From NCBI GenBank assembly GCA_041917295.1, contig JAYRXX010000063.1:21583-85582 (forward strand): 64,000 bases of DNA, in the 5' to 3' direction. This document shows, in pieces, positions 22,075 to 41,987 of this stretch. A program made the translations under genes and the position numbers. Every line of letters starts with the position of its first letter. The first letter of the stretch is position 1. The notes beneath the pieces are model-generated. The model was not told the DNA's origin. It worked only from the letters and a program-made list of their open reading frames with translations, and did no database searches. This stretch comes from Elusimicrobiota bacterium. GTDB taxonomy: Bacteria; Elusimicrobiota; Elusimicrobia; FEN-1173.

Positions 22075-22158
22075 AAGCATACCCCCGAATAACCCAATTG
22101 AAAACCCCCCGACCCGCACGCAAAGGGGACATGGTTGACCAATTGGTTTTTCCAATAT

Positions 22159-22188
22159 TTGACATCCCATTACAAGCCAATGTAGAAT
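22159..22188 (+). promoter_or_regulatory. strong sigma70-like promoter oriented toward amtB
   Basis: Perfect -35 TTGACA (22159-22164), 18-nt spacer, -10 TAGAAT (22183-22188). Confidence 0.4.
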
Positions 22189-27700: not shown

Positions 27701-28017
27701 GTTCGCGCTTCGGCCAACCAGAATTTCATCCGCGCCGCCCGCTTGTCCGGAACAGGCAGGTCTTGAAGAACGCGCAACAAATCGTTCAACCGTTCGGCCA
27801 ACCGGATTTTTATTTCCCCCGCGGCTTTCTCCGTGAACGTGAGCGCCACGATGCGGGTGATGGACAACCCCGCCCGGTCCGGACCCCCGGCCAAGAGCAG
27901 GAACATCAACCGGTCTGTTAACAAGGTCGTTTTCCCGGTTCCCGCGCCGGCTTCAACCACGATGTTGGCGTCCAAGATTTTCCGCGCGGTGTCGCGGGAT
28001 TGTTGGTCCGCCGTCAT
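24760..28017 (-). CDS. addA: ATP-dependent helicase/nuclease subunit A (UvrD-family helicase + RecB-type PD-(D/E)XK nuclease)
   Basis: Walker A EAGAGTGKTT in a UvrD/Rep-like N-terminus. The C-terminal nuclease motif GVIDLLYRRDGGLWVADYKTD. 4-nt overlap with the upstream addB-like gene. Confidence 0.8.
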   Translation of the reverse strand: MTADQQSRDTARKILDANIVVEAGAGTGKTTLLTDRLMFLLLAGGPDRAGLSITRIVALTFTEKAAGEIKIRLAERLNDLLRVLQDLPVPDKRAARMKFWLAEARTEFGADDDRLRRMAHEALRDLDRAPIGTIHSFCKTLIQLYPVEAGVNPHFQVDKGSGFEDVFQAQWSLWLEKELVLDSPREQQWRDVLAHAGVGDLGLLARALSKYPPCETDTAPLLHRLVELREALERLPEGKPKPARGDMLKSISSIAQRLRAVEQVVRDPDGPISEPSDWKESLKKWPGEWKGLPGVDVYTQAGELANRISPEGEAVLVRARRLLAPFADLCRRHYRAQGWLGFDDLLRGARDLLARHPAVRRELKERFGAVMVDEFQDTDPLQGEMLLFLAEGPNSAADRWSDVKLEPGKLFIVGDPKQSIYRFRGADIRAYEAFVSLVISQGGIKCDLQTSFRTHERIVDPVNRLFSGLMREEKGLQPAYLPLLPRPEENDRAGEERPSLGVPGSGGDVDLVVVDGGVAAEARWIARWIVGQCGPEGSGRPWRLGDVALLFRSTSPLSAYMAALKDAKIPYRVESDRAFYGTPEVTDFLNVLRVLDDPNDRVSWVGLLRSPWMMVEDRYVMALADAGSWEGGPSVPPEVNSRIAELVKTLTDLRQAARTESLGALAARVVEQTEFVAACAAAYHGEQTVANLHKVARLAAEAGETRGETVGGFVRRVAGDVGRGVEEGENPLGEDRTAAVRLLTVHKAKGLEYKVVILPNLSATVRGAAHRPAAFRLDWAEGRAGHRLVKRKWADLAMAFMDLDERRREKEEAIRLFYVAATRARERVILVGGEKSSTGSFMEMLSGQSQLALVPRQIGPENAPLPLWSEQKSPSPPLLTSELEHLWAVRRANGQRLQGRPLFGRPSDGEHPRARAVWADDSSPGAGARSAWVGQLCHGVLELWEWGKSDLASVLERALRRLGPEIQSDPEVLREAKVILSGYFSSPLGRSFDRADILAREAPFLYPDGDVIVRGVIDLLYRRDGGLWVADYKTDRVDAAHVEEQARNYEAQGTAYRKAVESALGEKCGFEVIFLRAQQRVIVSP

Positions 28018-31004
28018 GGGACGATGTCCTCCTCCGATTCAATGGAGCCCAGGGCCCGACGTCGCGTGGGTCCGTGGGCCTTTCGGCACGCCCGGGCAAA
28101 CCCGCACAGGGAACAGTGGGAACCCGGCCCATCGGTCGGACGAATCACAAACTCGCCGTTGCGGATTTTTGATAACAGCTCCCCTCGCGCTTTAACGAGA
28201 GCGGGACCGTGTTTGTCCCAATCCTCCGCCGACAAAATGTCGGTTTCCGGTGCGGTCAACGATTCAAACCGAACGCCCCCGCACACCGCCCCGGGGCCCC
28301 ACAGGCCCTGGGCCGACACCATTTCCAAATAGGCGGGAGCTTGGTGAGCCTGACCGGCGGCCACCCGTTTCAGCAACGGCTCTTTCATGATTTTGTTTTT
28401 GTAATCCACCACGGTCCATCGGCCGGTCTGGGAAGAATAATCCACCCGGTCGATGCGTCCGTTCCAAAAAAAATCGGTGCCCGTCATGGGGGCTTTGATA
28501 ACCCACTCCAATTTCTCGGGCCGGGCGCCCTCTTGGATTAAGCGCGCCACGTCACGGCGAACAAAATCCGCCAATCGGCGGGTCACCCGATCGACCACCG
28601 TGCGCCACACCAACGGATAGGGGCCCGCTCCCTCGCCGACCGCGTCGGCAAAAAACGGGCCCGCCTCCTTTTGAAGATGGTCCGCGGCCGTGGCCGGGTC
28701 GGGAATCCCCTGAGCGGCAAAATCCCCATACACCCGATTCAACAAAGCGTGTTGAAGGGACCCCAACGCGGCGGGGAGAGGCCCCTCTTCGTCATAAAAA
28801 GGTCGAGGTTCTCGAATGCTCAACACCTGGGCCATAAAAAACTCGAACGGGCAATTTGCCGCCGTTTCCAACGCGCTCGGGGACAAACCCCGGCGAACGC
28901 ATCGGTCCAAAAAGGCCTCCGGTGCCTCCACGCGACCGTCCCACGGGCCTGGATGGTTCCCTTTAACCAGATGGGTCGCCCGTCGAACCGTTTCGCCCAA
29001 GGAACCCGTTGGATCCCGCCCATCTAAAATGTCCGCCAGGGCCGCTTCCCGGAGGGTCAATGTGTTTGCCGAAACAGACGTCCATTTGGCCAAGGGAGGA
29101 CGGGGTACCCGTTCGGCCTCGTCCACGTCGAGACCCAGAGCGCTCGCCAGGGTTCGCAGATACAAAGACGGAATTTCTGTCCGTCCTTCTTCTCCGGACC
29201 GGGAATAGACCAAATACAACCGCTCTTGAGCCGACGAAATTAACAGGGTGAACAACAGTTTTTCTTCATCGTGCCCTTCCCGTTTAGGCAAAATCCAATA
29301 TCCACCCGGGTCCCGCAAAAACCGTCGGGCGTCGTCGTTCAACAAGGGATCTTCCCGAATCACCCGGGGAAACACGCCTTCCTTCAGGCCAATCAAAAAC
29401 AAAACCCGGAAAGATTCTCCCCGGGCGTCCATGGCGCCCATGACCCGAACGCCCTGGACCGGCCCCGTCCCGTCGGCCCGGGCTTGACGCAGGGCCTCTG
29501 AAAAGGCCGAAACAAATTCGTCATTCTTTACCGGAGGCGAAAACCGATCCAATTCCGCTAAAGAATCAAGTGTTCGCGACACGGGATCCAGCGTATCCAG
29601 AACCGACGGATCCACCAGCCTTTGCCACTGTTCGCGAAGGGCATCGGCGTGGGCTTTCCACGATCGTTCCCCCTCATCAAAATCAAGCCCGGCTGACCCC
29701 TTGGAAGCCCCCCCGACTTGAAGAAACAATTCGGCAAGCGCCGGAATTTTTTGAGCGGCGGGCGCAAGAAGATGGTTGAACCCCGCCCGGGGCCCCGCCG
29801 TGATCAAATAGCTTCGGGCTTCCCGAACAGCCGCGGAGGTAAAGAGATCGGCCCGAAGGAGCGGAGAGGACAACAAATCAAGCAAAACGGTGCGATCGTG
29901 GCCGTGAGTCCGAACCCCCGCCAGGTTTAAAGCAAACCGAGCCGCGGGTTTGGCCAACAGGGGTCCCCCGTCAGTCAGAGAAAATGGGATCCCATGGGCG
30001 AAGAAAATTTCATGAACCAACCCGGTGTAATTTTCCACCCCGCGCGCCACCACGCCCATGTGGTTCCAATCCACAGGATTGGATCCTTCCCGCAACGTCA
30101 GGATTTCTTTGGCCACGCGCCAAACTTCGTCCCGTTCTCCGGAGACATTCAAAATGCGGACATTTCCCTCCCCCTGTTGCGTTAAGAACCCCGGATCGAA
30201 AATACGATCTGCCAGGACACCCAACACCCGCGGTTCGCGGGACGTTCCACTTTGAATTCGGGCCCCCCCCCACGGAATGTTGACGTCCAAAAATCGCTCG
30301 GCAAACGACCACCCCGGGCTCCCCTTGACGCAGGGGAAAAAAAGCGTGACCGGAGCCGATTGGGCCATAGCCCGGAAAAAATCCGACTGGGCCCCGTTTA
30401 AATCGTAAAACCCGTAGTAGAGGAATTCGTCGTAGACAGACAAGAGGGCCGGGTCGGATTCCACGGCGATCGCGGCCCGACGGGCCACATCGGCGGACCC
30501 CGCTACGTTCGCTTGGTCCAACCGGGCCCGATAGGCGTCGGCCATGTCAATCAACCGGTCCAGTTTTTCTTTGCCGGAAAAATTCAAATCAGAGAAATGC
30601 TCGCGGAAATGGCTACCCACCACGCCCGCTTCCACCAAATCCCGCAACGTGGACCGATACGCTCCCGCCAGTGCCCGGGCCCGCTCGGAACCCATTTGAT
30701 ATTCTTTCAACAAAATCCGTTCCACAACCCGTTCATGAAAAAGGTCGTCGTTGATCACGGTCGGCAACGGTCCACCGGCCAACCGCAACACATCCAACGC
30801 CAAGCTGTTTAAAGTATGGAACCGAATGTTGAACAAAGAAAGGCCCCGCTCGGCCGACAACAACCGCTGGAGTCGTTCGGCCATCCGCTGAGACGCCGTG
30901 ACCACCGCCACCCGCCGCCCTGGTCCCGGGGGGGTTGTTGTCAGATAGGAAACGAAGGATTCTTCAAGATAAGAAAACGAACCCACCTGAAGGGAAAGGG
31001 ACAT
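28014..31004 (-). CDS. addB: helicase/nuclease subunit B-like (inactivated helicase + RecB-type nuclease with Fe-S cluster)
   Basis: Nuclease motif GRIDRVDYSSQTGRWTVVDYKNK. C-terminal Cys cluster ...NCPFEF... and CSLCGFARAC (C-x2-C-x5-C), typical of the AddB iron-staple. Confidence 0.75.
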   Translation of the reverse strand: MSLSLQVGSFSYLEESFVSYLTTTPPGPGRRVAVVTASQRMAERLQRLLSAERGLSLFNIRFHTLNSLALDVLRLAGGPLPTVINDDLFHERVVERILLKEYQMGSERARALAGAYRSTLRDLVEAGVVGSHFREHFSDLNFSGKEKLDRLIDMADAYRARLDQANVAGSADVARRAAIAVESDPALLSVYDEFLYYGFYDLNGAQSDFFRAMAQSAPVTLFFPCVKGSPGWSFAERFLDVNIPWGGARIQSGTSREPRVLGVLADRIFDPGFLTQQGEGNVRILNVSGERDEVWRVAKEILTLREGSNPVDWNHMGVVARGVENYTGLVHEIFFAHGIPFSLTDGGPLLAKPAARFALNLAGVRTHGHDRTVLLDLLSSPLLRADLFTSAAVREARSYLITAGPRAGFNHLLAPAAQKIPALAELFLQVGGASKGSAGLDFDEGERSWKAHADALREQWQRLVDPSVLDTLDPVSRTLDSLAELDRFSPPVKNDEFVSAFSEALRQARADGTGPVQGVRVMGAMDARGESFRVLFLIGLKEGVFPRVIREDPLLNDDARRFLRDPGGYWILPKREGHDEEKLLFTLLISSAQERLYLVYSRSGEEGRTEIPSLYLRTLASALGLDVDEAERVPRPPLAKWTSVSANTLTLREAALADILDGRDPTGSLGETVRRATHLVKGNHPGPWDGRVEAPEAFLDRCVRRGLSPSALETAANCPFEFFMAQVLSIREPRPFYDEEGPLPAALGSLQHALLNRVYGDFAAQGIPDPATAADHLQKEAGPFFADAVGEGAGPYPLVWRTVVDRVTRRLADFVRRDVARLIQEGARPEKLEWVIKAPMTGTDFFWNGRIDRVDYSSQTGRWTVVDYKNKIMKEPLLKRVAAGQAHQAPAYLEMVSAQGLWGPGAVCGGVRFESLTAPETDILSAEDWDKHGPALVKARGELLSKIRNGEFVIRPTDGPGSHCSLCGFARACRKAHGPTRRRALGSIESEEDIVP

Positions 31005-31050: not shown

Positions 31051-31965
31051 TCAGGCGGCGCCGGTGGCGGGCAAGCGGGATTCGGAGCTGGAGGAACGCA
31101 CTTCGGTCGTCAGCGTTGCTTCCAGATCGGAAAAAGAGGCCCCCGCTTTGTAGGAAAATCCGATCCGGACAACGTCCCCCAGCCCGACGGGGAAGGCTTT
31201 CGGCAGCGGTAAGATCAAATAGTGGCTGTGCCAATCAATGGTTTTTTTTGTTTCGGACACAACCGCCAGGATGTTTTTCGTAATAAACCGGAGGGCATTC
31301 AGGGCCCCTTCTTTTTCAATCTCAATTTCGCCGCTCCAATCGCAGCGGGCCGGGATGGAGTCTTTGTACGTATGCAACTGATACACTTTCGGCATCCCCA
31401 ACTCCCGTGTTTTTTCGTGCAAAACATTGGGATTTTGAAGAATAGGGATCGGGGCGTAATACCCATCGAAGGTAAAATCGTGTTCCACCGGTTGCACGGC
31501 CTGGATAAAGGCCTCGGGAACAAACTGGGGCAACGGGTTCCCAAACCGAGCCAGATATCGTTCTTTAAATGAATTGAGAATAGGAATTTGTTTTTCCCTC
31601 AACATGGCCACATGGATCATTTCACAGATCACCACGTCCACGGGTTCCGGGGGCAGGTATTTGAACGCGTCCGCTTTGATCACCTTTATTTTATTGCCGC
31701 ACTCGTTCATTGAAAGGATCTGTCTTGCTTTCGACACGAGTTCCGGATTGCGCTCAACGCACCACACTTTTCCGGCTTTGAGTCCCGCGAAATAGGAAAG
31801 AACCCCGGTTCCACCACCCAATTCCAAGACCTTCCCCCCCAGCGGAACCAAATAATCAATAGCGGTTTTAAACCCGCGCATGCGGGTGACGTCGCTGAGC
31901 ATGTTGTGATGGTAGTGCAGGGGGATAAACTGCCCCAGCACCGAGGAGTCGTCCGCTCGAACCAT
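31051..31965 (-). CDS. PRMT-like (protein arginine N-methyltransferase fold) class I SAM-dependent methyltransferase
   Basis: Motif I VLELGGGTGVLS, post-I VDVVICEMIHVAMLREKQ (PRMT double-E-loop-like), and an N-terminal ...HHNMLSDVTRMRGFKTAI pre-motif. GC is lower than in flanking core genes. Confidence 0.6.
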   Translation of the reverse strand: MVRADDSSVLGQFIPLHYHHNMLSDVTRMRGFKTAIDYLVPLGGKVLELGGGTGVLSYFAGLKAGKVWCVERNPELVSKARQILSMNECGNKIKVIKADAFKYLPPEPVDVVICEMIHVAMLREKQIPILNSFKERYLARFGNPLPQFVPEAFIQAVQPVEHDFTFDGYYAPIPILQNPNVLHEKTRELGMPKVYQLHTYKDSIPARCDWSGEIEIEKEGALNALRFITKNILAVVSETKKTIDWHSHYLILPLPKAFPVGLGDVVRIGFSYKAGASFSDLEATLTTEVRSSSSESRLPATGAA

Positions 31966-32090: not shown

Positions 32091-32099
32091 GTGAAACAA
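32091..32099. repeat. target-site duplication, left copy (GTGAAACAA)
   Basis: Identical 9-mer directly flanks both IS ends. Confidence 0.6.
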
Positions 32100-33387
32100 C
32101 ACACCTGTCCGGGGAAAAAATAAGGGAATCCCCCGTTATTGGTAAAATGATTGTGCGAACAATTCATTTTATCGACGGAGGATTCCCGTGGCCCATTATA
32201 ACACGATTTTAAATCAGTTGCTGTTCCATGTCCCCCGACATCAATTCGACCGACTGGTCGAAACCCACCAAGCGGACCGCTACGCGAAAACGTTTAGCAC
32301 CTGGAACCAGCTAACGGTGATGCTCTATGCCCAATCGAGCGGTAAAGAGAGCTTGCGTGAAATTGAACAAGGACTGGAAACCCAAGAGAGCAAAACCTAT
32401 CACGTGGGATTGGCAGGGCCTGTTCGGCGGACGACGTTGGCGGATGCCAACGGGCGGCGAAAGTGGGAAATATTCAGGGGAGTGTTCGGAGAGTTATTGA
32501 CCCGGTGCCGATCGGTGACGCCAAAGCACAAATTTCGGTTTAAAAACCCACTGTATAGCATTGACTCGACGGTCATCAGCCTATGTTTGAGCCTTTTCCC
32601 CTGGGCGCGGTATCGAACGGCGAAGGGGGGCCTGAAACTTCATTACCAGCTGGATTACGCGGGCCATATCCCGAGCTTAATGGTGATCACAGAGGGTCGA
32701 GAAAATGATGTGTCCGTGGCGAAAAAGGATATACCGATTGAACCGGACAGCATCTATTGCTTTGATCGGGGGTATGTGGACTTCGGGTATTTCCGACGGT
32801 TGGAGAATATGGGGTGCACGTTCGTGACACGGGTGAAAAAGAACCTGTCCTATTGGGTTACCGGACAGCAGGAATGCTTGAAAAACCGCGGTGTTTTGAT
32901 GGACGCGACGATTGAGCGAGGGCAGGGGGAGTATGTGGGCAAGGATTGCCCGCTACGGCTGATCCGTTACTACGATAAGGAGAACGATCGGACGCTGGAG
33001 TTCCTGACCAACAACATGACGTTTGCAGCAACGACGATTGCGGAGATCTACAAAGCCCGCTGGCAGATCGAGGCATTCTTCAAGTGGATCAAGCAGAACT
33101 TGAAGATCAAGACGTTCCTTGGCACGACGGAAAACGCGGTGCTAAGCCAGATCTGGGTGGCGATGATTTATTACTTGTTGTTGGCTTACATCAAATATCA
33201 AACCAAATACGGCCGTTCGCTGTTCTATTTGCACCGGGTGATTAAGGAGACCTTGTTGGATCGGATCTCCCTGATGGATCTTCTCAACTTAAACGAAGCC
33301 AGGCTTAAAAGATTGAAGCGACTTGACCCGCAACTCCATTTTTCCTTTATCGCCACCTAATTTCCAAACTTTCCCCGGACAGCTGTG
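32100..33387 (+). mobile_element. intact IS4-family insertion sequence (1288 bp)
   Basis: 18-bp terminal inverted repeats CACACCTGTCCGGGGAAA (32100-32117) and reverse-complement CACAGCTGTCCGGGGAAA (33370-33387), 17/18 identical, starting with CA. 9-bp direct repeats flank it. A single DDE transposase ORF lies inside. GC is ~50%. Confidence 0.75.
32188..33360 (+). CDS. IS4-family DDE transposase
   Basis: 390 aa. N-terminal DUF4372-like region and a DDE domain with CFDRGYVDFGYF and ...YKARWQIEAFFKWIKQNLKIK (the YREK-like IS4 signature). Confidence 0.85.
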   Translation: MAHYNTILNQLLFHVPRHQFDRLVETHQADRYAKTFSTWNQLTVMLYAQSSGKESLREIEQGLETQESKTYHVGLAGPVRRTTLADANGRRKWEIFRGVFGELLTRCRSVTPKHKFRFKNPLYSIDSTVISLCLSLFPWARYRTAKGGLKLHYQLDYAGHIPSLMVITEGRENDVSVAKKDIPIEPDSIYCFDRGYVDFGYFRRLENMGCTFVTRVKKNLSYWVTGQQECLKNRGVLMDATIERGQGEYVGKDCPLRLIRYYDKENDRTLEFLTNNMTFAATTIAEIYKARWQIEAFFKWIKQNLKIKTFLGTTENAVLSQIWVAMIYYLLLAYIKYQTKYGRSLFYLHRVIKETLLDRISLMDLLNLNEARLKRLKRLDPQLHFSFIAT

Positions 33388-33396
33388 GTGAAACAA
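33388..33396. repeat. target-site duplication, right copy (GTGAAACAA)
   Basis: See the left copy. Confidence 0.6.
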
Positions 33397-33562
33397 TAGT
33401 TTACAAAAGATTTACAAGTTGTTAAGGCGAAATTAACTTGGTTCAGTTACAATATCCTCGTTAAAATTGTTTCACCTATTTTCCAAAGATAATTAATGGC
33501 TTATTTGCTTATGTCAATGCGCTACTGCATAGTTATACAGGAACGAAAGGCATTTCCATGCC

Positions 33563-33600
33563 CGTCATTCCGGCGTGGGGTTAGCCGGAATCCAGTCGTT
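33563..33600. repeat. short palindromic element, copy 2 (REP-like), just upstream of the giant gene
   Basis: CGTCATTCCGGCGTGGGGTTAGCCGGAATCCAGTCGTT. Shares the CGTCAT(C/T)CCGGC...GCCGG(G/A)ATCCAGTC(A/G)TT frame with 18183-18215. Confidence 0.35.
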
Positions 33601-33620
33601 TCTGTCTTGAGGGGGCCACA

Positions 33621-36600
33621 GTGATGTCGTTATTCTTTTCGGTTTCCGGGATTCGCAGGCGTTGGTCGGTCTTCGCGCTCAGTGTGATATTTTTTGGGTC
33701 CAATGTCCTTGCCGTCCATGCGGGAGAGGCCAGTTTTTGGGCGGAGCGTCGCAATGTCTCCCGACGAATGCATGGGGTGGAAGCAAAATCCGGGGCCACC
33801 GGGTTCGGGCTGACGGCGGAACAGTATCAGACCCTGACCCAACTGCCGAAGGCTGGCCAGTTGAACCCCGGCAGCATTCAGGGCGGTTCATCCGTCGGCT
33901 CTGGACGGGCAGTGTCCCCCCCTGTTTCGAACGTCTTTCGACCTTTTGAACACCCGACCCTTTTGGGTGACACCCCCACGTGGGTGTCACAGCTTATCCT
34001 CCCTTACGGGTCCATCCTTGAGGCGCATCTCGCCAAAAAAACCAACGCGCCCTTCATCGTCCACATCCAGGACGCCCACGGGATCGAGGAAGCCCAAAAG
34101 AACATGGCGGCCATGATCGAGGGGCTGAGCGAAAACCGCGGGGTGAGCCTGGTCGGGGTTGAAGCCGCCCAGGGCCCTTTCAACATGGGACCCTACCGGG
34201 ACTGGCCGGACGCAAATGTGACCCGTGACGTGGCCACCTATTTCCTCAAAGATGGCACAATCGGCGGAGCGGAATTCGCCGGGATCACCGCCCCCAAGCC
34301 TCTGACACTTTGGGGGATCGAGGATACAGACCTTTACCTCGCTAACGTTCATGCCTTAATAGACGCCAACAAGCTGAAACCGGAACTAACAAAAGCCTTA
34401 GCCGGTATCAAAAGGTCCGTTTCTTCCCTCAAGGAAACGATTTATTCCAAGGAACTGAAAGACTTTGACAAGCATTTCCAGGCCTATCAAGACCAACGGG
34501 AAGGGCTGGGAGCCTATGTCCGATTTTTAACGGCCGGATCACTGTCAAACAAAAAGGGGTTGCCGAACCTCCACCTTCTGGTCAAGGCTCTCATGGCCGA
34601 AGAGGCCCTGGACTTCAAGCAAGTGGAGAAAGAACGGCTCAAGCTGGTGGAAAGGCTGGCCCTTCGCCTTGCCAAGGATAAGCTGGACCTCCTTGTGCAA
34701 AAGAGCTTCCAATACCGCGCCGGTCAAATTGGCTACGGCGATTATCATCGGTTTCTAAAATCTCTGTGCCGTGAAAACGGGATCTCCCTGGGCGACCTGA
34801 ACCAACTGGACAATTATATCGAATACGTCCTCCTGGCAGACAAGATTGACCGAAACAACCTATTGAACGAGTTGACCCGCGCCGAAAAGGCCTCTCAAGA
34901 CCGGCTGGCGATCACGTCCGAACAAAAAAAACTACTGGCCGTCGCTCGGCGCCTGGCCCTCCTTGAAAAACTCTCGACCCACACCATGACGCCAGACGAT
35001 TGGGCGGCCTTCGAGAAAGAAAGAGAACATATTCTGACCATCGCCTCCGACCTTGCCACCCTTTCCGGCGAAGAACAGGCGCTACCCCTTGACACCCTGG
35101 CCGGTCTGATCAGTCCGTCAGAAAGTTTTTGCCGTTTTGCCATCGACCGCAACGCCGCTTTCATTGACAACCTTTCCGCCCAAATGGAAATGAAAAAAGC
35201 ATCCTCGGCAGTCCTCGTAGCCGGAGGCTTCCATTCCGACGGCCTAACCCGCCTTCTCCGGGAAAGAGACTTATCATATGTGGTGGTCACCCCCAAAATC
35301 AGCGAAGTCCCCAAAGAGAATAATTACTTGGATGTATTTGCCCGTGACCCATTGCCCCTAGAAAAACTGTTCGCGGGGGAAAAGATTTCGTTAAACAGCG
35401 CTAGGCTGTCCGGTGGAACGATGAGGGGGTTTGAGGGCCCGGCGTCCGCTTTTCGGCGCGAAGGGGTGGCCACCATGGCCGCCACGGCTTCTCTTGAACC
35501 GAACGTGGATCACACAGCTCTCAGTCGGACGGCGGAGAGCACCGCGGCGGAGCTTAGCGCACCCATGTCGATCAAGATTTCCGGCAGTTCCAACCGTACG
35601 TGGACAACCATCGACACCAATGGGGACGGTCAAGTCGACCTGAAAATGATAGCGACTCCTTCGGGACGTTCGCTGCCGCCGCAGGAAGATTCCCCTCCCT
35701 TGTCAACAGTGGAGATCGACGGCCGCGCCAAAATTACCTTTCACCAAATCCGTCCAGGTTTATTCAAAAAAGTTTGGGCTTCGATCCGGAAAATATTTCC
35801 CATCCGCAGTCCGGTGAACAGCCGTGGTGGGGTCGAACAAACACCTACATCGAACACCGCTTTCCCCATCCTTCATGTCCCCCAGGGGGGCCTGATTGGG
35901 AAGTTTCGTCTTTTGTCCGACCCTCAATGGGATCCCGCTTCAAAAACTGTCTCTTTTGTGGGGCAAGACATTGAAAACCCGGGCAAACCACCCGAAACAA
36001 TTCGCCTTGAGGCTGAAATCGTTGATCGAGAGGAATGGGCCGACCGCCTTTATTCGAGTCTATCTGGTAGGGAAAACGACTTGGTGACTGAGATCATGGA
36101 TTGGTTTCAAGACGCTTTCCATGGTCCATTGATCGTTTTAAGAGACAATCCCATCACCCAAGGCATAGGGACCCAGGTGGGAGAGCAAGGCGGATTCGTA
36201 GCCGTTTCTGAACGCTACGCTAATAATCACATCGCTTGGTTTCACGAGATTGCGGAAGCCATGGCCCCGAATGCCGATGAAATCCTCTCACGACTTTCCC
36301 CAAACTCACAGGCCTGGTACAAGGCCCATATGTCCAAACCGGGCCGACAGGGTATGGAACGGCACTACGCCATCCGGGCTCTCCAACGTGAAGTATTTCG
36401 GCAATCTGACTTAAGTTTGACCTATGAAATCAAGGGCCGATTGTCCGCCACGGATATCTCGAAAAAACTCAGTTCGGCCAAATTAAAAAAAGGGTTTGTC
36501 GTTCGGAATGAGTTTTCCCGGCAACGCTCTTCGCAGAACAGCCGGGAGGGTGAAATATCTTTATTGGAAGATCTGATCAAGACCCAGAGGAAGGCCGAGG

Positions 36601-39600
36601 AAGAAGAAATTGAAAGACAACGGATTGAACAAGAAGAGATCGAACGGCGCCATGCCGAAGAAACAGCTGTAAGGGTTAAAATTCGATCTCTTCTCGATCG
36701 AGCAAAGGGGATTATCGAAGCCCCCTTGGCTTCGGATTTGGCGCACGAACACCGGTTAATAGAAAAAGACAAGGCCGCCCTCGCCGCCGTTTCCGTTCTT
36801 CGGCCGTTATTCGAAATGAATCCCGAATGGGTGGCGGAGGCACTGGTTGAAGATTTGATGGCTGGTGGCGCAACGCCGGCGGACCTCTATTCCCTCATGG
36901 GGAAAGACTCATTTGGGGTATACCTTGCGAAGAATGTTGTCCCCCAGTTGGGAGAGAGGGCCTTATCGCAAACATTATTAAAGCTGATGGAGAAACGATC
37001 GACATTGCAATGGAATAGACGAGCATTCAAAGCCCACGCTGCCGTCGTCACCCTTTTCGTCGACCATGCGCCAAGACTGGGGGAACGTGTAACCGCTGAG
37101 GTCGCCGGGCCGCTTCTCATGGCCCTACGAAAGGAATTTAGGGCTCGGCCGTACACGCGCTTGAGTTTTGTTCAAGGCATTCCTGATTACAGGAGATACT
37201 TCGACGTGGATGGAGACGTGGTCTTCTTTAAAGACGACTTCTTGAATAGATTGCTGGTGCGAGACATGGGAGCCCGCCGGAACCTACACACGCTGTACCA
37301 TGAGGCCATTCGCGAACAGGAATATTTGTCAAGTTTAACCGACAACTTGCTGTCAAAGGACACCGAGGGGCATCTTTTTAACGCCCTCCTTTCAGCGCTC
37401 CATCAAGAGGGAAACCCGCTCGTGCGTGCTCATTTGGAGAGTAGTCTGATCCGCGCCTGGAGAACCACCCTCCCCTCCGCGCATGAGAGGTTATTAAACC
37501 TTGTCAAGGAGATTCAAGCAACACATCACAATGGCGATGAGAGATTAAAAGAAGACGCGATAGGACGCTTGTTAATGATCGCACACAAAGATGGTTGGGA
37601 TTCTGGAATTTCCTCTGACATTCTTTTTTCAATGGCCATGGATGGCTTGCCGGGATTATTCGAAGCGGTTCGATCCCAATCTTCGGAAATAGACAAAATG
37701 CCTCGCGGTATTGAAAGGGATATGGCAAACAGGCAAATGGGAGAGACGATGACGGCGGTGAAAAAGAGACTCGCCATTTTGTGGAGGGTGGCTTTAAGCG
37801 CGACGTCCCAATCATCCGTTCCGGCATCGATCTCCGTGGCGGGACGAGCCATGGCTTACCTTGTTGAAGTGGCGCAAATGGAAGGGGACATCGCCATCCG
37901 GTCCGAAACCATCGCTCTCCTTGGGATCGCGGTCGAAAAAGGTTACCCAGCCGCGGTTCGTGCGTTCCTTCCCTCAATACAGCCGTCTTCCCAACAATTC
38001 GAAAACCTTTTTTATGACAACCCCAGTGATGAGGTCATTCTTAACGCCCTACGGTCAAAGGCCATGTCTGTTCGTCTGGGGTTCCTCTTATTGCGTCGAT
38101 ACAAAAATGATCCAAGCCGCGCGGGGTTGCTGAAAGCCATCGTATTGGATAGGAAAACAAACGAGGGGGATTCCTTGGGCATTAATGCCCAAATTCGTTT
38201 CTATGCCTTTGCGCTCTACGGCAGTCAGTATTTGAAAACAACGAATGAAGATGGGATAACCTCTTCTTACGACGAGAATCAATTTCAAGAAATGGCCGGT
38301 GCGCTTGCGCCGCATGCACACGGTTTTATCGGGACCGCCATCGATGATTCAATACTCATCGACCGGCTGTTTGATGGTTGGCCTGGGCAGGACGAAGAGT
38401 TGGGAGCGTACGCAATCGCCACGGTCCTTGATGCCTTTCATGGGAATTTGACCGGTTTGAAAGCGAAGGGTTTTGTGGCGGTGGCAGAGAGAGTGGTTAA
38501 CGCCCGCGCCAGCTCCTATCTAAATAATGCCTATGATGATCTCTCGTTCGGAGGTCACTTTCTCCGAAGAGCTCAAAACCCCGTTCAATTCTTTTTTCAA
38601 GTAATGGTCCACGAACTCACGCACATCTTGTTGAAGAACCAACATGATTATTTGGCGGGGGAATTAGTCGGTGGGACGATTCATGAATGGTTGGCTGATT
38701 TGGCCGCGGAGGATTTTTCCAGGAGAAGGGGTTTATCCCTGGAGGATTACCGAGATATCTTAGGGTTTGATAGGGATTTATCATTTGTTGAAGAGGATTC
38801 GTTCCATACCATTGAGGTTCATGAGGGTGCACGGGCCCAGCAGTTGCTGATTGCAGGGTGGCTTTCGGAAAACGGTCTCACGCTTGATCCGTCAAAAATG
38901 GTTCGTGCGGCATTGGATGTTCTACCGGGAACGTCGGGCGATGACCTGGACGTTGTGGTAAGAAAGGTCCTTGAGAGGTTTGCGGGACGTCCGCTGGAGG
39001 ACTCAGAAACAGCGGGGATGAATCGTATGTTTCTGTCTTTGTTTGATTATAGATTCGATGAATTTATTGAGGGGAAGTATCGGCAAAGAATTCTTTCTTT
39101 GCCCGTTTTGCGTGAAATATTGAGCCCCTTGTTGGATGGGTTGGCCACCTCTCTTCAATCGGTGTTCCCTTCCGGACAGGAGGAAGGGGTTTTGGCGGAG
39201 GCGACCGCTCGCTCCCTGGCCGGAGCCGGCCTATGGACCGGGGGCCTCTTTCCATTGTTATCCCTGGGAACCAAAAACGTTTTGGACGCTGTCGCGAAGA
39301 GCCTTGCGGCATGGGGATTGGAACCAATAAAAGACATGAGTCCACGACTTTGGCCGCAAATGATTCAGGAGGCGATGGCGGGGGGACTTCAGTTAGAGCT
39401 GATACAATCCATCGTGGGCGCCCTGGCGAGGGACGGATTCATGGAAGAGCGTGCGTGGACTGCGAAGGAAAACGCCGCTCTTGAGAAGGTCCAAAGACGA
39501 TTGGCGTCGGACCTCCCGGGGGTTCGCGCCATTGAGTATGTGCGACTGGGATTTGGCAAAAAGGCCGTGGATCCCTCCACGGGGGCCGAAGTATCATTGG

Positions 39601-40562
39601 ACACAAGCTTGTTTATGGGGTTTGACATGAAACCGGATGGGACGTTAAGAGTTTTTGTCCATCCCGACGTTTTCAATGGGGCCGCCGACCCGGCCGCGTT
39701 TCTTCTCGATGCCATGATGCACGAGATTCTTGAAGGACCAGGGGGTGTGGAACACTCGATCCTTGAGGACGAAGGCATCGGAATGGACCGAAATATCGAT
39801 TGGCAGACAGCGGAGGCGCGAATTTCATCAGTCCAGTTGAGGTTGGCAACGAACTTATTGGAGCGATGGTCACGGGATGGTGATCCAGATGCCCTAATAA
39901 AATTGGCGATGGTTGGGGCTCATGGGGTGAATTGGGATGGAGCGCGGCCAGCGACCCCTGTCGGGGCCATGGGGCCGACGTTCGCTCTGGCGGGGGACCG
40001 TGGACAGCGGGCGTTGGCTCACCTCATGGCTGTGGCGGAGGATGTCGGAATGGATTCCACCCTGGTCGAACGATTGTTGCATCGGGGCCTTTTGGTGGCG
40101 GGTTGGCGGGCGGTATTGGCCGAGGCCCCCGGCGCGTTCCACTATGTGGACGTTTCCCCTCTGGATGAGGCTCCGGAATCCGAAAATCGGTTGGCCTGTG
40201 AAACGCTTCTTTCCGCTTTGGAGGTTGTTGTGGCCGCCGACCCAAATCCAACAAAGAGGGCCCAACAGATTTTTATCGGATGCGACAACCAGGGTCAAAA
40301 AACCTTCGTTGAGTCGCGGTTTCCGACCTTAAAGGGCTCTCGGTTTAAAACCAATCGATTTGAGGGAAAGGATATCGCTGTCGGATGGGCGGCAACCGAG
40401 GTCGACGAGGCCGGGTCGTCCTCTTTGCACGTTCACACGGTGCGGGAGTTGAACACCGACGGCACGCCTCCAGGGATCGACGTGGTGCCCAGCCCCTACA
40501 ACTTGAGCACGATCATGCAAAAAGCATTGGATTCCATTATCCGCGTCTTGATTGCCGCTTAA
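33621..40562 (+). CDS. giant secreted protein (2313 aa) of unknown function with HExxH zincin-like motif
   Basis: GAGGGGG RBS, then GTG at 33621 / ATG at 33624. Signal peptide MMSLFFSVSGIRRRWSVFALSVIFFGSNVLAVHAGEA. One HExxH (VMVHELTHILL, ~residue 1660) with a downstream Glu (GTIHEWLAD). Charged coiled-coil stretch EEEIERQRIEQEEIERRHAEE. No Walker motif or other recognisable domain. GC is clearly below genome background. Confidence 0.7.
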   Translation: MMSLFFSVSGIRRRWSVFALSVIFFGSNVLAVHAGEASFWAERRNVSRRMHGVEAKSGATGFGLTAEQYQTLTQLPKAGQLNPGSIQGGSSVGSGRAVSPPVSNVFRPFEHPTLLGDTPTWVSQLILPYGSILEAHLAKKTNAPFIVHIQDAHGIEEAQKNMAAMIEGLSENRGVSLVGVEAAQGPFNMGPYRDWPDANVTRDVATYFLKDGTIGGAEFAGITAPKPLTLWGIEDTDLYLANVHALIDANKLKPELTKALAGIKRSVSSLKETIYSKELKDFDKHFQAYQDQREGLGAYVRFLTAGSLSNKKGLPNLHLLVKALMAEEALDFKQVEKERLKLVERLALRLAKDKLDLLVQKSFQYRAGQIGYGDYHRFLKSLCRENGISLGDLNQLDNYIEYVLLADKIDRNNLLNELTRAEKASQDRLAITSEQKKLLAVARRLALLEKLSTHTMTPDDWAAFEKEREHILTIASDLATLSGEEQALPLDTLAGLISPSESFCRFAIDRNAAFIDNLSAQMEMKKASSAVLVAGGFHSDGLTRLLRERDLSYVVVTPKISEVPKENNYLDVFARDPLPLEKLFAGEKISLNSARLSGGTMRGFEGPASAFRREGVATMAATASLEPNVDHTALSRTAESTAAELSAPMSIKISGSSNRTWTTIDTNGDGQVDLKMIATPSGRSLPPQEDSPPLSTVEIDGRAKITFHQIRPGLFKKVWASIRKIFPIRSPVNSRGGVEQTPTSNTAFPILHVPQGGLIGKFRLLSDPQWDPASKTVSFVGQDIENPGKPPETIRLEAEIVDREEWADRLYSSLSGRENDLVTEIMDWFQDAFHGPLIVLRDNPITQGIGTQVGEQGGFVAVSERYANNHIAWFHEIAEAMAPNADEILSRLSPNSQAWYKAHMSKPGRQGMERHYAIRALQREVFRQSDLSLTYEIKGRLSATDISKKLSSAKLKKGFVVRNEFSRQRSSQNSREGEISLLEDLIKTQRKAEEEEIERQRIEQEEIERRHAEETAVRVKIRSLLDRAKGIIEAPLASDLAHEHRLIEKDKAALAAVSVLRPLFEMNPEWVAEALVEDLMAGGATPADLYSLMGKDSFGVYLAKNVVPQLGERALSQTLLKLMEKRSTLQWNRRAFKAHAAVVTLFVDHAPRLGERVTAEVAGPLLMALRKEFRARPYTRLSFVQGIPDYRRYFDVDGDVVFFKDDFLNRLLVRDMGARRNLHTLYHEAIREQEYLSSLTDNLLSKDTEGHLFNALLSALHQEGNPLVRAHLESSLIRAWRTTLPSAHERLLNLVKEIQATHHNGDERLKEDAIGRLLMIAHKDGWDSGISSDILFSMAMDGLPGLFEAVRSQSSEIDKMPRGIERDMANRQMGETMTAVKKRLAILWRVALSATSQSSVPASISVAGRAMAYLVEVAQMEGDIAIRSETIALLGIAVEKGYPAAVRAFLPSIQPSSQQFENLFYDNPSDEVILNALRSKAMSVRLGFLLLRRYKNDPSRAGLLKAIVLDRKTNEGDSLGINAQIRFYAFALYGSQYLKTTNEDGITSSYDENQFQEMAGALAPHAHGFIGTAIDDSILIDRLFDGWPGQDEELGAYAIATVLDAFHGNLTGLKAKGFVAVAERVVNARASSYLNNAYDDLSFGGHFLRRAQNPVQFFFQVMVHELTHILLKNQHDYLAGELVGGTIHEWLADLAAEDFSRRRGLSLEDYRDILGFDRDLSFVEEDSFHTIEVHEGARAQQLLIAGWLSENGLTLDPSKMVRAALDVLPGTSGDDLDVVVRKVLERFAGRPLEDSETAGMNRMFLSLFDYRFDEFIEGKYRQRILSLPVLREILSPLLDGLATSLQSVFPSGQEEGVLAEATARSLAGAGLWTGGLFPLLSLGTKNVLDAVAKSLAAWGLEPIKDMSPRLWPQMIQEAMAGGLQLELIQSIVGALARDGFMEERAWTAKENAALEKVQRRLASDLPGVRAIEYVRLGFGKKAVDPSTGAEVSLDTSLFMGFDMKPDGTLRVFVHPDVFNGAADPAAFLLDAMMHEILEGPGGVEHSILEDEGIGMDRNIDWQTAEARISSVQLRLATNLLERWSRDGDPDALIKLAMVGAHGVNWDGARPATPVGAMGPTFALAGDRGQRALAHLMAVAEDVGMDSTLVERLLHRGLLVAGWRAVLAEAPGAFHYVDVSPLDEAPESENRLACETLLSALEVVVAADPNPTKRAQQIFIGCDNQGQKTFVESRFPTLKGSRFKTNRFEGKDIAVGWAATEVDEAGSSSLHVHTVRELNTDGTPPGIDVVPSPYNLSTIMQKALDSIIRVLIAA

Positions 40563-40677
40563 AAATTCAACCTATTTGCCCCACCCGGGTTAAGGGGACT
40601 ATAGTGAGCATTTTACAATGCAAAATGCTCACTATCTATACGAAATGCACGGTCCACAACCGACCGGCCAGATGTTT

Positions 40678-41022
40678 CTAACGGCCCAGGATGATGTCGA
40701 TACCGGTCAGAACGAGGTTCAGTTGGCGGGATGACAGTTTTCCCGCCCGCTCGGTCAAAAGGGTTCTGTCGAGAGCGATGATCTGGGAGACGTTGGCGAC
40801 GGAATCTTTTGGGAGGTCCGTCTCGTTTGCGGACAAAAAGACGTTCCCGGGAGCCTCCGCCCACTGGAGATTGCTTGTCAACGGGACACAAACAATAGTC
40901 GCGATTCGGCTCCTGTTCAAAGGGTCGCCCTGGACGACGGCGACGGGACGTCGAAAGCCGGGCCCCGACCCCGTAGGGTCGGGAAGATCGGCCCACCATA
41001 TCTCCCCCTGGGCGACTTTCAC
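40678..41022 (-). CDS. type II toxin, PemK/MazF family endoribonuclease
   Basis: ...GEIWWADLPDP...RPVAVVQGD...VCVPLTSNLQ... fits MazF/PemK. The GTG start overlaps the antitoxin stop (GTGA). The ORF-track TTG start at 41097 would overlap the antitoxin by 79 nt. Confidence 0.7.
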   Translation of the reverse strand: MKVAQGEIWWADLPDPTGSGPGFRRPVAVVQGDPLNRSRIATIVCVPLTSNLQWAEAPGNVFLSANETDLPKDSVANVSQIIALDRTLLTERAGKLSSRQLNLVLTGIDIILGR

Positions 41023-41255
41023 CAGGACGAAGTTTTTAGACGACGGCGGCCCGCTTCTTGAAGAAAAGGATCGAGCGGTTCGCTCATTTCCCCGCAAACC
41101 CTGTTCATGGCTTCCGTGACTTCATTGGGGGAATGACGGTACAAGTATTCCTGCATGGCCTCGCTGAGGAGGCGGCTTCGTGATTTCTTTACTCGGCGCG
41201 TGTATTCCTCCACCTGGCGAAACAGGCGGTTCGGCATGGAAATGGCTGTTTTCAT
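41019..41255 (-). CDS. ribbon-helix-helix (CopG/MazE-like) antitoxin
   Basis: MKTAISMPNRLFRQVEEYTRRVKKSRSRLLSEAMQEYL has an RHH beta-strand + two helices pattern. Lies upstream of and overlapping the toxin. Confidence 0.6.
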   Translation of the reverse strand: MKTAISMPNRLFRQVEEYTRRVKKSRSRLLSEAMQEYLYRHSPNEVTEAMNRVCGEMSEPLDPFLQEAGRRRLKTSSW

Positions 41256-41369
41256 ACCATTAGTATGACTCACACACATACGGCTGTCAAGGCCTGACAG
41301 AGCATTTTTTCCACGTTGGCAATTCCCTCATCCGGCCCTTCGGGTCGGCTTCGAGTCCCACGCTAAAAC

Positions 41370-41453
41370 TGCCCGGGGCGGGACTCGAACCCGCACGAGC
41401 CTTTGGCTCACGGCATTTTAAGTGCCGTGTGTCTGCCGTTCCACCACCCGGGC
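41370..41453 (-). tRNA. tRNA-Leu (anticodon UAA), type II with long variable arm
   Basis: Reverse strand reads GCCCGGG-TG-GTGGAACGGCAGACAC-A-CGGCA-CTTAAAA-TGCCG-TGAGCCAAAGGCTC-GTGCGGGTTCGAGTCCCGC-CCCGGGC-A. Full cloverleaf. Anticodon loop CTTAAAA. CCA is not encoded. Confidence 0.85.
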
Positions 41454-41987
41454 CAAATTAATTTGTTTTCTTCTGTTCTTACCGCGATGAGTCGGTTTAA
41501 GACTGTGACAGTTGGGACAGAGGATCCTTAGATTCACAAGCCGATTGTCCGTTCGATCACCATTAATGTGATCCAATTCGAGCGGCAGATAGCCATCGGC
41601 CGTTTTTTTTGCCCACCCGCATTCTTCACACGCCTTGCTTTTTAAACCCTCAGAAAACAACCTTTTTTTTAGCTTAAAAATTTGAAAATCACTCCCCATG
41701 ACAAGAATTTTACTCAGTGGAAGCCGGGGCTTTCCAATGCCTCGAAGACCGCGATTCCAGGCTTGGTGTTTAAAATGTGAGATATCCAACCCCAACTCGG
41801 CAATATACTTTCGGAGCTGAGAATAATTCCCCCCAGCCTCCCTAAGCCCCAGACGCATCAACAACTGGCGGTAGCTGTAAACTGCGGGGACAGCGGACTT
41901 CAATGTCTCCTCGGACCACTTACGCTCTCGCATGGACCGAATCATACAATTCGGCAAAGGCATAAACAACGGCACACGCAAAAACAT
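41418..41987 (-). CDS. HNH endonuclease family protein
   Basis: HNH motif ...LELDHINGDRTDNRLVNLRILCPNCH..., plus upstream zinc-finger-like CEECGW. The last 36 nt of the ORF overlap the 5' half of the tRNA-Leu. Confidence 0.55.
   Translation of the reverse strand: MFLRVPLFMPLPNCMIRSMRERKWSEETLKSAVPAVYSYRQLLMRLGLREAGGNYSQLRKYIAELGLDISHFKHQAWNRGLRGIGKPRLPLSKILVMGSDFQIFKLKKRLFSEGLKSKACEECGWAKKTADGYLPLELDHINGDRTDNRLVNLRILCPNCHSLKPTHRGKNRRKQINLARVVERQTHGT

Follow-up and report, generated by a model that had tools for sequence, protein, structure and literature searches.

Giant proteins that combine several enzymes, often behind a signal peptide or transmembrane segment, have been described from Omnitrophota and related phyla; their function has been called obscure, and recurrent reports on giant or very large proteins from Omnitrophota, Elusimicrobia and allied phyla describe them as poorly conserved (bioRxiv 10.1101/2023.11.21.568195; 10.64898/2026.06.07.730766; PMC10066038). 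Here we present a giant protein of 2,312 residues from an uncultivated Elusimicrobia bacterium (assembly GCA_041917295.1), together with the family to which it belongs. Its gene occupies positions 33621..40562 (+ strand) of a stretch of 64,000 nucleotides, in the following called the window (contig JAYRXX010000063.1, positions 21,583 to 85,582). The protein appears to combine two known kinds of domain, a Tiki-superfamily hydrolase close to the N-terminus (the head) and a thermolysin-like gluzincin. The family that the head defines is apparently undescribed, as far as the literature searched shows: the word 'Tiki' has 0 occurrences in the text of the two giant-protein preprints (10.1101/2023.11.21.568195; 10.64898/2026.06.07.730766), and a search for Tiki, TraB or erythromycin esterase in these phyla found no paper. 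We regard the giant protein as probably a Sec-exported, extracytoplasmic protein with two hydrolase domains, belonging to an accessory family that evolves fast, diversifies rapidly and is exchanged horizontally. The integrity of the reading frame, both folds, the conservation of the catalytic residues, the architecture and paralogy of the family and the exchanged block around the gene were computed directly.

Gene and export signal

The gene is a single uninterrupted open reading frame (ORF), encoding 2313 residues from a GTG at 33621 or 2312 residues from an ATG at 33624, in agreement with the one ORF of about 7 kb given in a preliminary description of the locus. A Shine-Dalgarno-like GAGGGGG lies 8 nt 5' of the ATG, and residue numbers throughout refer to this start. 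The G+C content is 0.536 overall and 0.59 at third codon positions (GC3), compared with a GC3 of 0.65-0.73 in neighbouring chromosomal genes, which fits the low-GC island reported earlier. The motif reading of the preliminary description is accurate: the highly charged stretch noted there was recovered as the most charged window of 40 residues (aa 974-1013, 36543..36662, +; 58% charged), which is probably a coiled coil and is also present in relatives, and neither a Walker A motif, nor GxGxxG, nor internal or tandem repeats occur in the giant protein. Searches of the whole protein against Pfam and NCBIfam returned 0 matches, and Pfam searches with ten overlapping tiles at E <=10 gave no meaningful match.

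The N-terminus, MSLFFSVSGIRRRWSVFALSVIFFGSNVLAVHA followed by GEASFWAERR, has the layout of a signal peptide (aa 1-33, 33624..33722, +), with RRR at aa 11-13 in the n-region, an h-region at aa 14-30 and a candidate signal peptidase I site after V31-H32-A33, in front of G34. The h-region is the sole strongly hydrophobic 19-residue stretch of the protein. The signal-peptide call is a heuristic reading of this layout (RRR, h-region, VHA before GE), and bears out the N-terminal signal peptide proposed before. On this reading the signal peptide would be cleaved and the protein exported, and an exported location is plausible from the sequence. The h-region is followed by the motif FWAERR (aa 38-43, 33735..33752, +); the pattern [FWIL]W..R occurs after the h-region in 48 of 100 family members.

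N-terminal hydrolase domain

The head module (aa ~120-560, 33981..35303, +) was assigned with high confidence to the Tiki/TraB/EreA/ChaN type of alpha/beta hydrolase fold. The predicted structure is a three-layer alpha/beta fold with a core of parallel beta-sheet, as in the superfamily, and a helical insertion of ~290 residues (aa ~235-525) separates its two catalytic halves. The eight best structural matches were HopBA1 (10.7), Bcr135 (10.2), a TraB-family protein (9.9), 2qgm (a Bcr135/136-type 'succinoglycan biosynthesis protein', 9.1), the unrelated methyltransferase 1v9a (9.0), ChaN (8.9), EreC (8.6) and RRSP (8.4). Leaving aside 1v9a, all seven are members of the Tiki/TraB/EreA/ChaN superfamily, counting HopBA1, which we take to belong to it. 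A Foldseek comparison of the head with the PDB was not significant, with EreC first (E 0.15) and Bcr135 sixth.

At the level of sequence, PF04187 (the ChaN model of the Tiki superfamily) was matched weakly by four of 22 head relatives (best E 1.9e-4), and the head of the giant protein itself had no significant match to PF01963, PF04187 or PF05139 (0 Pfam/NCBIfam hits). Sequence searches of the PDB with the head alone and with the head profile A1 found nothing relevant, A1 giving spurious EF-hand matches to the helical insertion; the same search with profile A4 also found nothing relevant, and a search for a plasmid or phage origin of the head gave no match. The statement of the preliminary description that the protein has no other recognisable domain therefore holds for Pfam and NCBIfam and fails on structure prediction and family alignment, both of which reveal the head.

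An alignment of 22 head sequences, reaching down to 21% identity, has H152, E180, G231, F502, R509, G534-G535-F536-H537 and P557 as invariant and Q149, D150, A157, Q158 and E217 as near-invariant residues. These include a set of the 2His/2Glu type known from the superfamily, consisting of D150-x-H152, E180 (28 residues past the His) and H537 in GGFH. The residues essential in RRSP are E3900, H3902, E3930 and H4030, the corresponding His-Glu pair of Bcr135 is H85/E113, and the His-to-Glu spacing of 28 is the same in both proteins and in the head (PMC6254334); the equivalence to RRSP and Bcr135 rests on motif and spacing and not on a residue-level superposition. Because its catalytic residues are invariant, the head is likely to be catalytically competent.

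Directly after the head, in a predicted disordered region, lies a conserved motif (aa 565-590, '...DPLPLEKLFAGEKISL', 35316..35393, +) that does not recur further along the family proteins. The PLEKLF-type motifs adjacent to the head gave 1 and 0 further matches (~0.5 and ~0.9 expected), and FWxERR gave 9 (~19 expected). Repeated cleavage sites, considered as a possibility, were rejected for this lack of recurrence.

Thermolysin-like domain

The second hydrolase domain (aa ~1521-1795, 38184..39008, +) is marked by YxxNAxxxFxxGG, HELTH (1663-1667, nt 38610-38624), HEWLAD with E1688 and D1692 (nt 38685-38699) and HEGARAQ (1733-1739, nt 38820-38840). H1663-H1667 is the only HExxH of the giant protein (chance expectation 0.09), and Glu1688 lies 21 residues past its second His. 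With the final 1,200 residues as query, an exhaustive search by HMMER matched 41 proteins, most of them over aa ~1370-1790; about 33 of the 41 have HExxH followed ~21 residues on by (H)ExxxD, at 24-43% identity. Such a search was needed to find the family, since word-indexed searches were near-empty (two proteins only for aa 621-2312, none for the zincin profile A2). In an alignment of 22 sequences, R1525, A1599, G1643, H1663, E1664, H1667, E1688, H1733 and R1737 are invariant and H1687, D1692, G1735 and A1738 near-invariant, and from these columns we derive the family signature HExxH...HExxAD...HEGARAQ.

The structure model of the domain has a zincin fold and matched thermolysin best (11.3 and 11.1, 200 residues aligned), followed by pseudolysin/LasB (9.9 and 9.6) and by M1 aminopeptidases, leukotriene A4 hydrolase, dipeptidyl peptidase III and M36 peptidases (8-9). 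An hhalign comparison of the zincin profile with the thermolysin sequence gave E 2e-4 and placed YxxNAxxxFxxGG on the substrate-binding strand YNNAFWNG, HELTH on H142-H146 and HEWLAD on NE166AISD170; H1663, E1664, H1667, E1688 and D1692 thus align with thermolysin H142, E143, H146, E166 and D170. The gluzincin-like motif noted before is therefore backed by conservation of HExxH...E in distant homologues and by a model that folds like thermolysin and other gluzincins, and the homology to a zincin fold around HExxH that such a motif implies was found. Tiles covering the domain had no Pfam hit to Peptidase_M4 or M4_C at E <=10, and a PDB sequence search with the zincin profile A2 had no hit. By sequence the domain, a thermolysin-like gluzincin, stands outside peptidase family M4 proper, and it probably represents a new family in clan MA(E).

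A helical region resembling HEAT/ARM repeats (aa ~1166-1520, 37119..38183, +) stands directly before the protease domain. This arm makes up the first ~150 residues of the zincin model, and homology among relatives reaches back to aa ~1166.

The two models bear on the adhesin role that had been put forward for the protein. A surface adhesin with an accessory protease domain would be large and exported, as the giant protein is predicted to be, and giant ORFs of related phyla have often been proposed as adhesins (PMC10066038). The giant protein has no repeats, however, and no Ig, cadherin, beta-helix, dockerin or lectin modules; both modelled regions consist of enzyme folds and helical repeats, and the modelled parts are mostly helical. 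We consider an adhesin very improbable.

The head-defined family

A first homologue search retrieved 77 proteins of 1,400-4,000 residues from metagenome-assembled genomes (MAGs) of Elusimicrobia and Omnitrophota. Apart from two close relatives, these share with the giant protein only its aa ~19-590, always at their own N-terminus. Of 130 proteins collected in all, 100 carry the head, which starts within the first 76 residues in every one of them; the head-bearing proteins have a median length of 3,029 and a maximum of 6,992 residues. The head is also present in 16 of the relatives of the zincin domain. A census with two short peptide patterns, on one genome per GTDB species, confirmed at least 237 loci; figures per genome and for neighbouring genes refer to the 78 of these that were listed, from ~32 genomes. 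Eight Elusimicrobia MAGs have 5-8 of the listed loci each, and others are found in Omnitrophota, Ca. Theseobacter exili and Ca. Auribacter fodinae; the head also occurs in Auribacterota. Family genes can stand in tandem on the same strand, as pairs or triplets (L025, L027, L032, L041, L064, L079), and two loci (L019 and L052) lie on one contig 16 kb apart.

The domains behind the head vary from protein to protein. Among their Pfam matches are PPDK and other PEP-utilising enzymes, Ser/Thr kinases, SpoIIE and low-molecular-weight (LMW) phosphatases, M48 with ABC1, malate synthase/isocitrate lyase, glutamate dehydrogenase, phosphoglucomutase, proline dehydrogenase, glycogen phosphorylase, AAA/Lon, radical SAM, HEAT, dockerin and LysM. 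Of three paralogues within one genome of a sister species, one has a protein kinase domain, one a phosphorylase-like and one a GH5-like domain. The family thus consists of mosaic proteins with a constant, strictly N-terminal head and a recombining array of modules. That the head is invariant and fixed in position suggests that it does something needed with every cargo, for example processing, maturation or a step coupled to secretion.

A hydrophobic segment is present at the N-terminus of 86 of the 100 head-bearing proteins, and an AXA-like site follows it in 75 of the 86. The charges beside the segment are +2.8/-0.3 in the N-terminal and +2.1/-1.9 in the C-terminal flank, a bias that predicts the N-terminus to stay inside and most of the protein to be exported. 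In the opposite arrangement the N-terminal helix would remain uncleaved and anchor a scaffold facing the cytoplasm, where cofactors are at hand. Such a scaffold would suit a family cargo that needs ATP, NAD or CoA and the basic residues (ERR...RR) after the hydrophobic segment, and many long proteins of Omnitrophota are predicted to be anchored by a transmembrane segment with their bulk in the cytoplasm (10.64898/2026.06.07.730766). The net charges of the flanks (+2.4 on the N-terminal side, +0.2 on the other) predict N-in/C-out, however, the frequency of AXA-like sites also argues against an anchor, and the giant protein lacks a second hydrophobic segment. Thermolysin-type proteases are extracytoplasmic, as are those Tiki, TraB and PrgY domains that have been characterised. 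An anchored scaffold is accordingly judged unlikely.

The main rival to an exported two-hydrolase protein is a delivered effector resembling MARTX toxins, in which the variable modules, in the present protein the zinc protease, act in or on another cell (prey, host or partner) and the head serves for autoprocessing or maturation or acts as a site-specific endopeptidase like RRSP. The constant head with its variable, recombining cargo would be expected of such an effector, as would many paralogues in tandem arrays and a recently exchanged, toxin-antitoxin-linked block whose copies have a ratio of non-synonymous to synonymous substitution (omega) of ~0.9 (see below). Delivery would also explain cargo of cytoplasmic enzyme type behind a signal peptide (kinases, SpoIIE and LMW phosphatases, PPDK, AAA/Lon, dehydrogenases). 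RRSP and HopBA1, both structural matches of the head, are delivered effectors, and an action on other cells has been suggested for the giant proteins of these phyla (bioRxiv 10.1101/2023.11.21.568195; PMC10066038). Against delivery, neither a translocation apparatus nor RTX-type repeats, a cysteine protease domain or genes for type I secretion turned up, the motifs adjacent to the head do not recur in the manner of repeated cleavage sites, and the present bacterium gives no sign of a predatory or host-associated life. No conserved neighbouring secretion gene was found among the 78 listed loci either; a beta-barrel gene accompanies only ~11 of them, at variable distance. An effector or toxin role of the giant protein is possible, and we regard the delivered array as a rather unlikely alternative.

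The beta-barrel gene is the only recurrent neighbour. It encodes an outer-membrane protein with weak TraF_2, PorP_SprF, UPF0164 or FadL hits, in some cases with a FlgD_ig/CHU_C-like C-terminus (L016, L017, L020, L026, L031, L033, L049, L053, L056, L064 and L078). A homologue fused to tetratricopeptide repeats lies in the window at 14327-16093 (+), 17 kb upstream of the giant gene. As a conserved partner the beta-barrel was rejected, the association being too weak; a link to surface export is possible. The gene of a 47%-identical homologue of the giant protein (P0002) is located directly downstream of a phage-integrase fragment (L001, 314-598, -), a hint that such genes reside in mobile or variable regions.

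Other modules of the protein

The giant protein was divided into modules by iterative searches against all collected proteins, a module being a region common to different relatives. At least three conserved modules besides the head and the zincin domain are common to other giant proteins, which further contradicts the absence of other domains. The head is followed by a linker module (aa ~600-725, +), also delimited by these searches, and by a module termed M (aa ~755-965, 35886..36518, +; extent by iterative searches aa ~740-1090), with conserved GLIGKY, NPYGIxGIG, WFHEIAEAM (H874, E875) and HYAIRALQRE. Module M ends in the charged coil described above, and had no Pfam or PDB sequence match. 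Its HE motif is HExxE in the giant protein and most relatives, HExxH in three of 12 and lost in one, and is followed by an invariant HYAxRA. This variation hints at another, possibly degenerate metal site, and on its sequence pattern module M may be a third, partly degenerate metal-dependent domain.

In many proteins the HEAT-like arm and zincin unit follows module M in the same order. Further downstream are two small conserved modules (aa ~1860-1981 and 1989-2077; 39201..39854, +), common to the relatives P0010, P0086, P0128 and P0129, and a C-terminal module (aa ~2080-2312, 39861..40559, +). The latter always forms the extreme C-terminus in six relatives, including proteins of 277 and 725 residues, and closes with a conserved [FYA]-A-COOH; no match was found for it in PDB or Pfam, nor to any toxin. 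The [FYA]-Ala end is reminiscent of a sorting or recognition tail. With its head, a supermodule of M, coil, HEAT-like arm and zincin, and the tail modules, the giant protein is a small member of the family.

Genomic context

The window is chromosomal. Among its genes are those for glutamate synthase, DnaX, CTP synthase, AddAB-like helicase-nucleases and a type II secretion/type IV pilus ATPase. It is syntenic with JAGPDP01 and JADJZR01, two MAGs from wastewater and groundwater samples that represent one sister species and are 99.2% identical to each other. From 33388 to 41299 the window is 95-100% identical to the sister MAGs (99.0% overall), and from the HNH gene to ~41800 it is 96-98% identical, while the flanks are 78-93% (left) and 88-89% (right) identical. 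The high-identity block (33388..41800, ~8.4 kb, 95-100% to the two sister MAGs) comprises the giant gene, MazEF and part of the HNH gene. The giant gene and MazEF make up ~8 kb of low GC3 at 99% identity, set between flanks of 83-89%, and therefore appear to have been exchanged recently between species at a homologous position; the sequences suggest exchange by homologous recombination.

Upstream of the block lies an IS4-family insertion sequence (IS) of 1,288 bp (32100..33387, +) with a transposase ORF at 32188-33360 (DDE transposase NF033592, E 4e-79). It has 18-bp terminal inverted repeats, CACA(C/G)CTGTCCGGGGAAA, and is flanked by the two copies (32091-32099 and 33388-33396) of a target duplication of 9 bp, GTGAAACAA. 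In the sister genomes, which lack the element, the site is empty. The element ends in the intergenic region 233 bp 5' of the giant ORF, whose transcription it may affect. Convergent with the giant gene, a MazF/PemK toxin is encoded at 40678-41022 (-; PemK_toxin, E 1e-22, for the ORF 40678-41097), and an antitoxin-like small ORF of 86 residues (41019-41255/41279, -), with weak RHH/HicB-like hits only, overlaps it upstream. The position of the island between an IS element and a MazEF module is hence as described before, and is strengthened by the 99% block. A longer ORF without a family hit (40613-40999) overlaps the MazF/PemK gene and is easily mistaken for it.

The HNH endonuclease gene (41418-41987, -), partly inside the block, has the lowest G+C content of the region (0.477, GC3 0.52), and an unalignable stretch of ~100 bp (41300-41399) separates it from MazEF. 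On the other side of the IS element, a methyltransferase gene (31051-31965, -) encodes a generic class I S-adenosylmethionine-dependent enzyme with weak PrmA hits only. The preliminary description had suggested that an adjacent PRMT-like enzyme modifies the giant protein; a link between the two is rejected, as the gene is generic, lies on the opposite strand beyond the IS element and belongs to the flank of ~87% identity instead of the 99% block. Farther upstream are an AddA/AddB-type helicase-nuclease pair (UvrD and PD-(D/E)XK; 24760-31004, -), syntenic with the sister species at ~83%, and two adjacent paralogous FG-GAP repeat proteins with C-terminal FlgD Ig-like domains (18309-22170, -), probably surface proteins.

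Proposed activity

Metal binding, catalytic activity, substrate and role of the giant protein are what we infer from the two folds and their conserved residues. Exported by the Sec pathway, the protein would be periplasmic, surface-associated or released. In the head, D150-x-H152, E180 and H537, together with R509, would activate a water molecule to attack an ester or peptide bond, in the way put forward for enzymes of the Ere, Tiki and RRSP kinds. In the zincin domain, H1663, H1667 and E1688 would bind Zn and E1664 would act as the general base, following standard gluzincin chemistry; if thermolysin is a guide, the first His would be braced by D1692, and the transition state would likely be stabilised by H1733 of HEGARAQ. 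The edge strand 'NAxxxF..GG' would bind the substrate backbone, and a protein, either substrate or partner, could be gripped by the HEAT-like arm before the zinc domain. Most likely the giant protein cleaves or processes proteins or peptides outside the cytoplasm, and targets could be proteins of other cells, proteins of the environment or exported proteins of the bacterium itself.

Several observations weigh against an exported two-hydrolase protein. ATP-, NAD- and CoA-dependent domains of 'cytoplasmic' kind stand behind the same signal peptide in many family members, which is hard to reconcile with a simple periplasmic or extracellular function; the giant protein itself is without a Pfam hit. 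ChaN, a member of the superfamily, binds haem and is not an enzyme. The 99%-identical copies of the giant gene differ synonymously at 18 codons and non-synonymously at 49 (the omega of ~0.9 given above), and the sister MAGs share two single-base indels 451 nt apart, one extending the C7 tract at 33916..33922 (+) to C8, with a shift of frame in both copies, the other changing GCC to GC at 34366. The indels put the catalytic half of the head out of frame, with the first stop at codon 109. Together, the omega value and the shared frameshifting indels make recent constraint on the giant gene look weak.

These last observations would be accounted for if the giant gene were a dispensable, decaying accessory gene, a transferred passenger without current function that is kept by the linked MazEF. 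Decay would agree with the two frameshifts being shared by two independent sister MAGs, and also with the IS element in the promoter region, the atypical GC3 and the outcome of a promoter scan, which found no sigma-70-like promoter on the + strand upstream (promoter and terminator scans were both uninformative). The window copy is intact, however, and keeps its frame of 2,312 codons and every invariant catalytic residue of both domains. The sister indels may reflect true loss of function or phase variation in that lineage, or else systematic errors of long reads, one of them falling in the C7/C8 homopolymer. An elevated dN/dS is expected at very short divergence. We consider decay improbable, and retain the exported two-hydrolase protein as the probable reading.

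Comparison with known systems

For the present gene the result is modest, a probable exported two-hydrolase protein on an exchanged, toxin-antitoxin-linked block, and the interest lies mainly in the family. Hundreds of proteins of 0.7-7 thousand residues (kaa) are unified by one conserved and, by its look, catalytically intact module, a Tiki/Ere-type head behind a signal peptide. The head provides a family definition, a searchable marker and a small expressible domain. An unannotated family of thermolysin-like metallopeptidases, recognised by the signature given above, is added, and the paradox of why ATP-, NAD- and CoA-dependent domains stand behind an export signal is sharpened. As a speculative extension, which we think rather doubtful, the signal peptide and Tiki-like head may mark an unrecognised class of exported enzyme-array proteins in Elusimicrobiota, Omnitrophota and Auribacterota, with the head as a processing or maturation protease or secretion-coupled hydrolase. 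The exchangeable cargo, made up of kinases, phosphatases, PPDK, dehydrogenases and glycosidases and, here, of a new thermolysin-like protease, would be delivered to act in or on other cells. If true, an effector platform like that of MARTX toxins would have been invented independently, and the function of the enigmatic giant proteins in these phyla would for the first time become approachable.

Of the described systems, the Tiki/TraB/PrgY/GumN-EreA/ChaN superfamily (TIKI1/2, RRSP, erythromycin esterases, Bcr135/136, HopBA1) resembles the head in its acid-x-His, Glu (+28) and distal GxxH, which are catalytic in RRSP, Bcr135 and Ere; TIKI and PrgY are extracytoplasmic, as predicted for the head. 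The head differs in lacking a significant match to any Pfam or NCBIfam model of the superfamily, in the ~290-residue helical insertion between its catalytic halves, in an Asp in place of the first Glu and in its fusion to the N-terminus of mosaic proteins of 0.7-7 kaa. Thermolysin and pseudolysin (M4, gluzincins of clan MA(E)) have in common with the second domain HExxH with ExxxD ~20 residues downstream, a downstream invariant His and the 'NAF'-type edge strand. Identity to them is 16-17%, and the domain is without an FTP/PepSY propeptide, has the HEAT-like helical arm in place of most of the beta-rich N-domain of thermolysin, sits mid-way in giant proteins and carries its own HEGARAQ signature.

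Among larger systems, polymorphic toxins are alike in a constant N-terminal region, variable downstream modules, many paralogues and horizontal exchange, whereas here no recognisable C-terminal toxin with an adjacent immunity gene is present (the downstream genes being the convergent MazEF) and what varies is a whole array of enzymes for metabolism and signalling, not a single toxin tip. MARTX toxins are likewise secreted proteins of several thousand residues with a constant framework and recombining enzymatic effector domains, one of which, RRSP, has the fold of the head. The giant protein departs from them in having no RTX/glycine-rich repeats, no cysteine protease domain and no type I secretion genes within ~10 kb of its gene, and its constant part is an N-terminal signal peptide with a Tiki-like domain. 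The giant multi-enzyme proteins of Omnitrophota and other phyla of the Planctomycetes-Verrucomicrobia-Chlamydiae group (West-Roberts et al. 2023 preprint; 2026 Omnitrophota complete-genome preprint) come from the same phyla and are alike in a signal peptide or transmembrane anchor followed by unrelated enzyme Pfams (PPDK_N, kinases, HATPase, radical SAM, HEAT). The published proteins have at least 10 kaa and no reported Tiki-like head, whereas the members of the present family have 0.7-7 kaa and are defined by their head.

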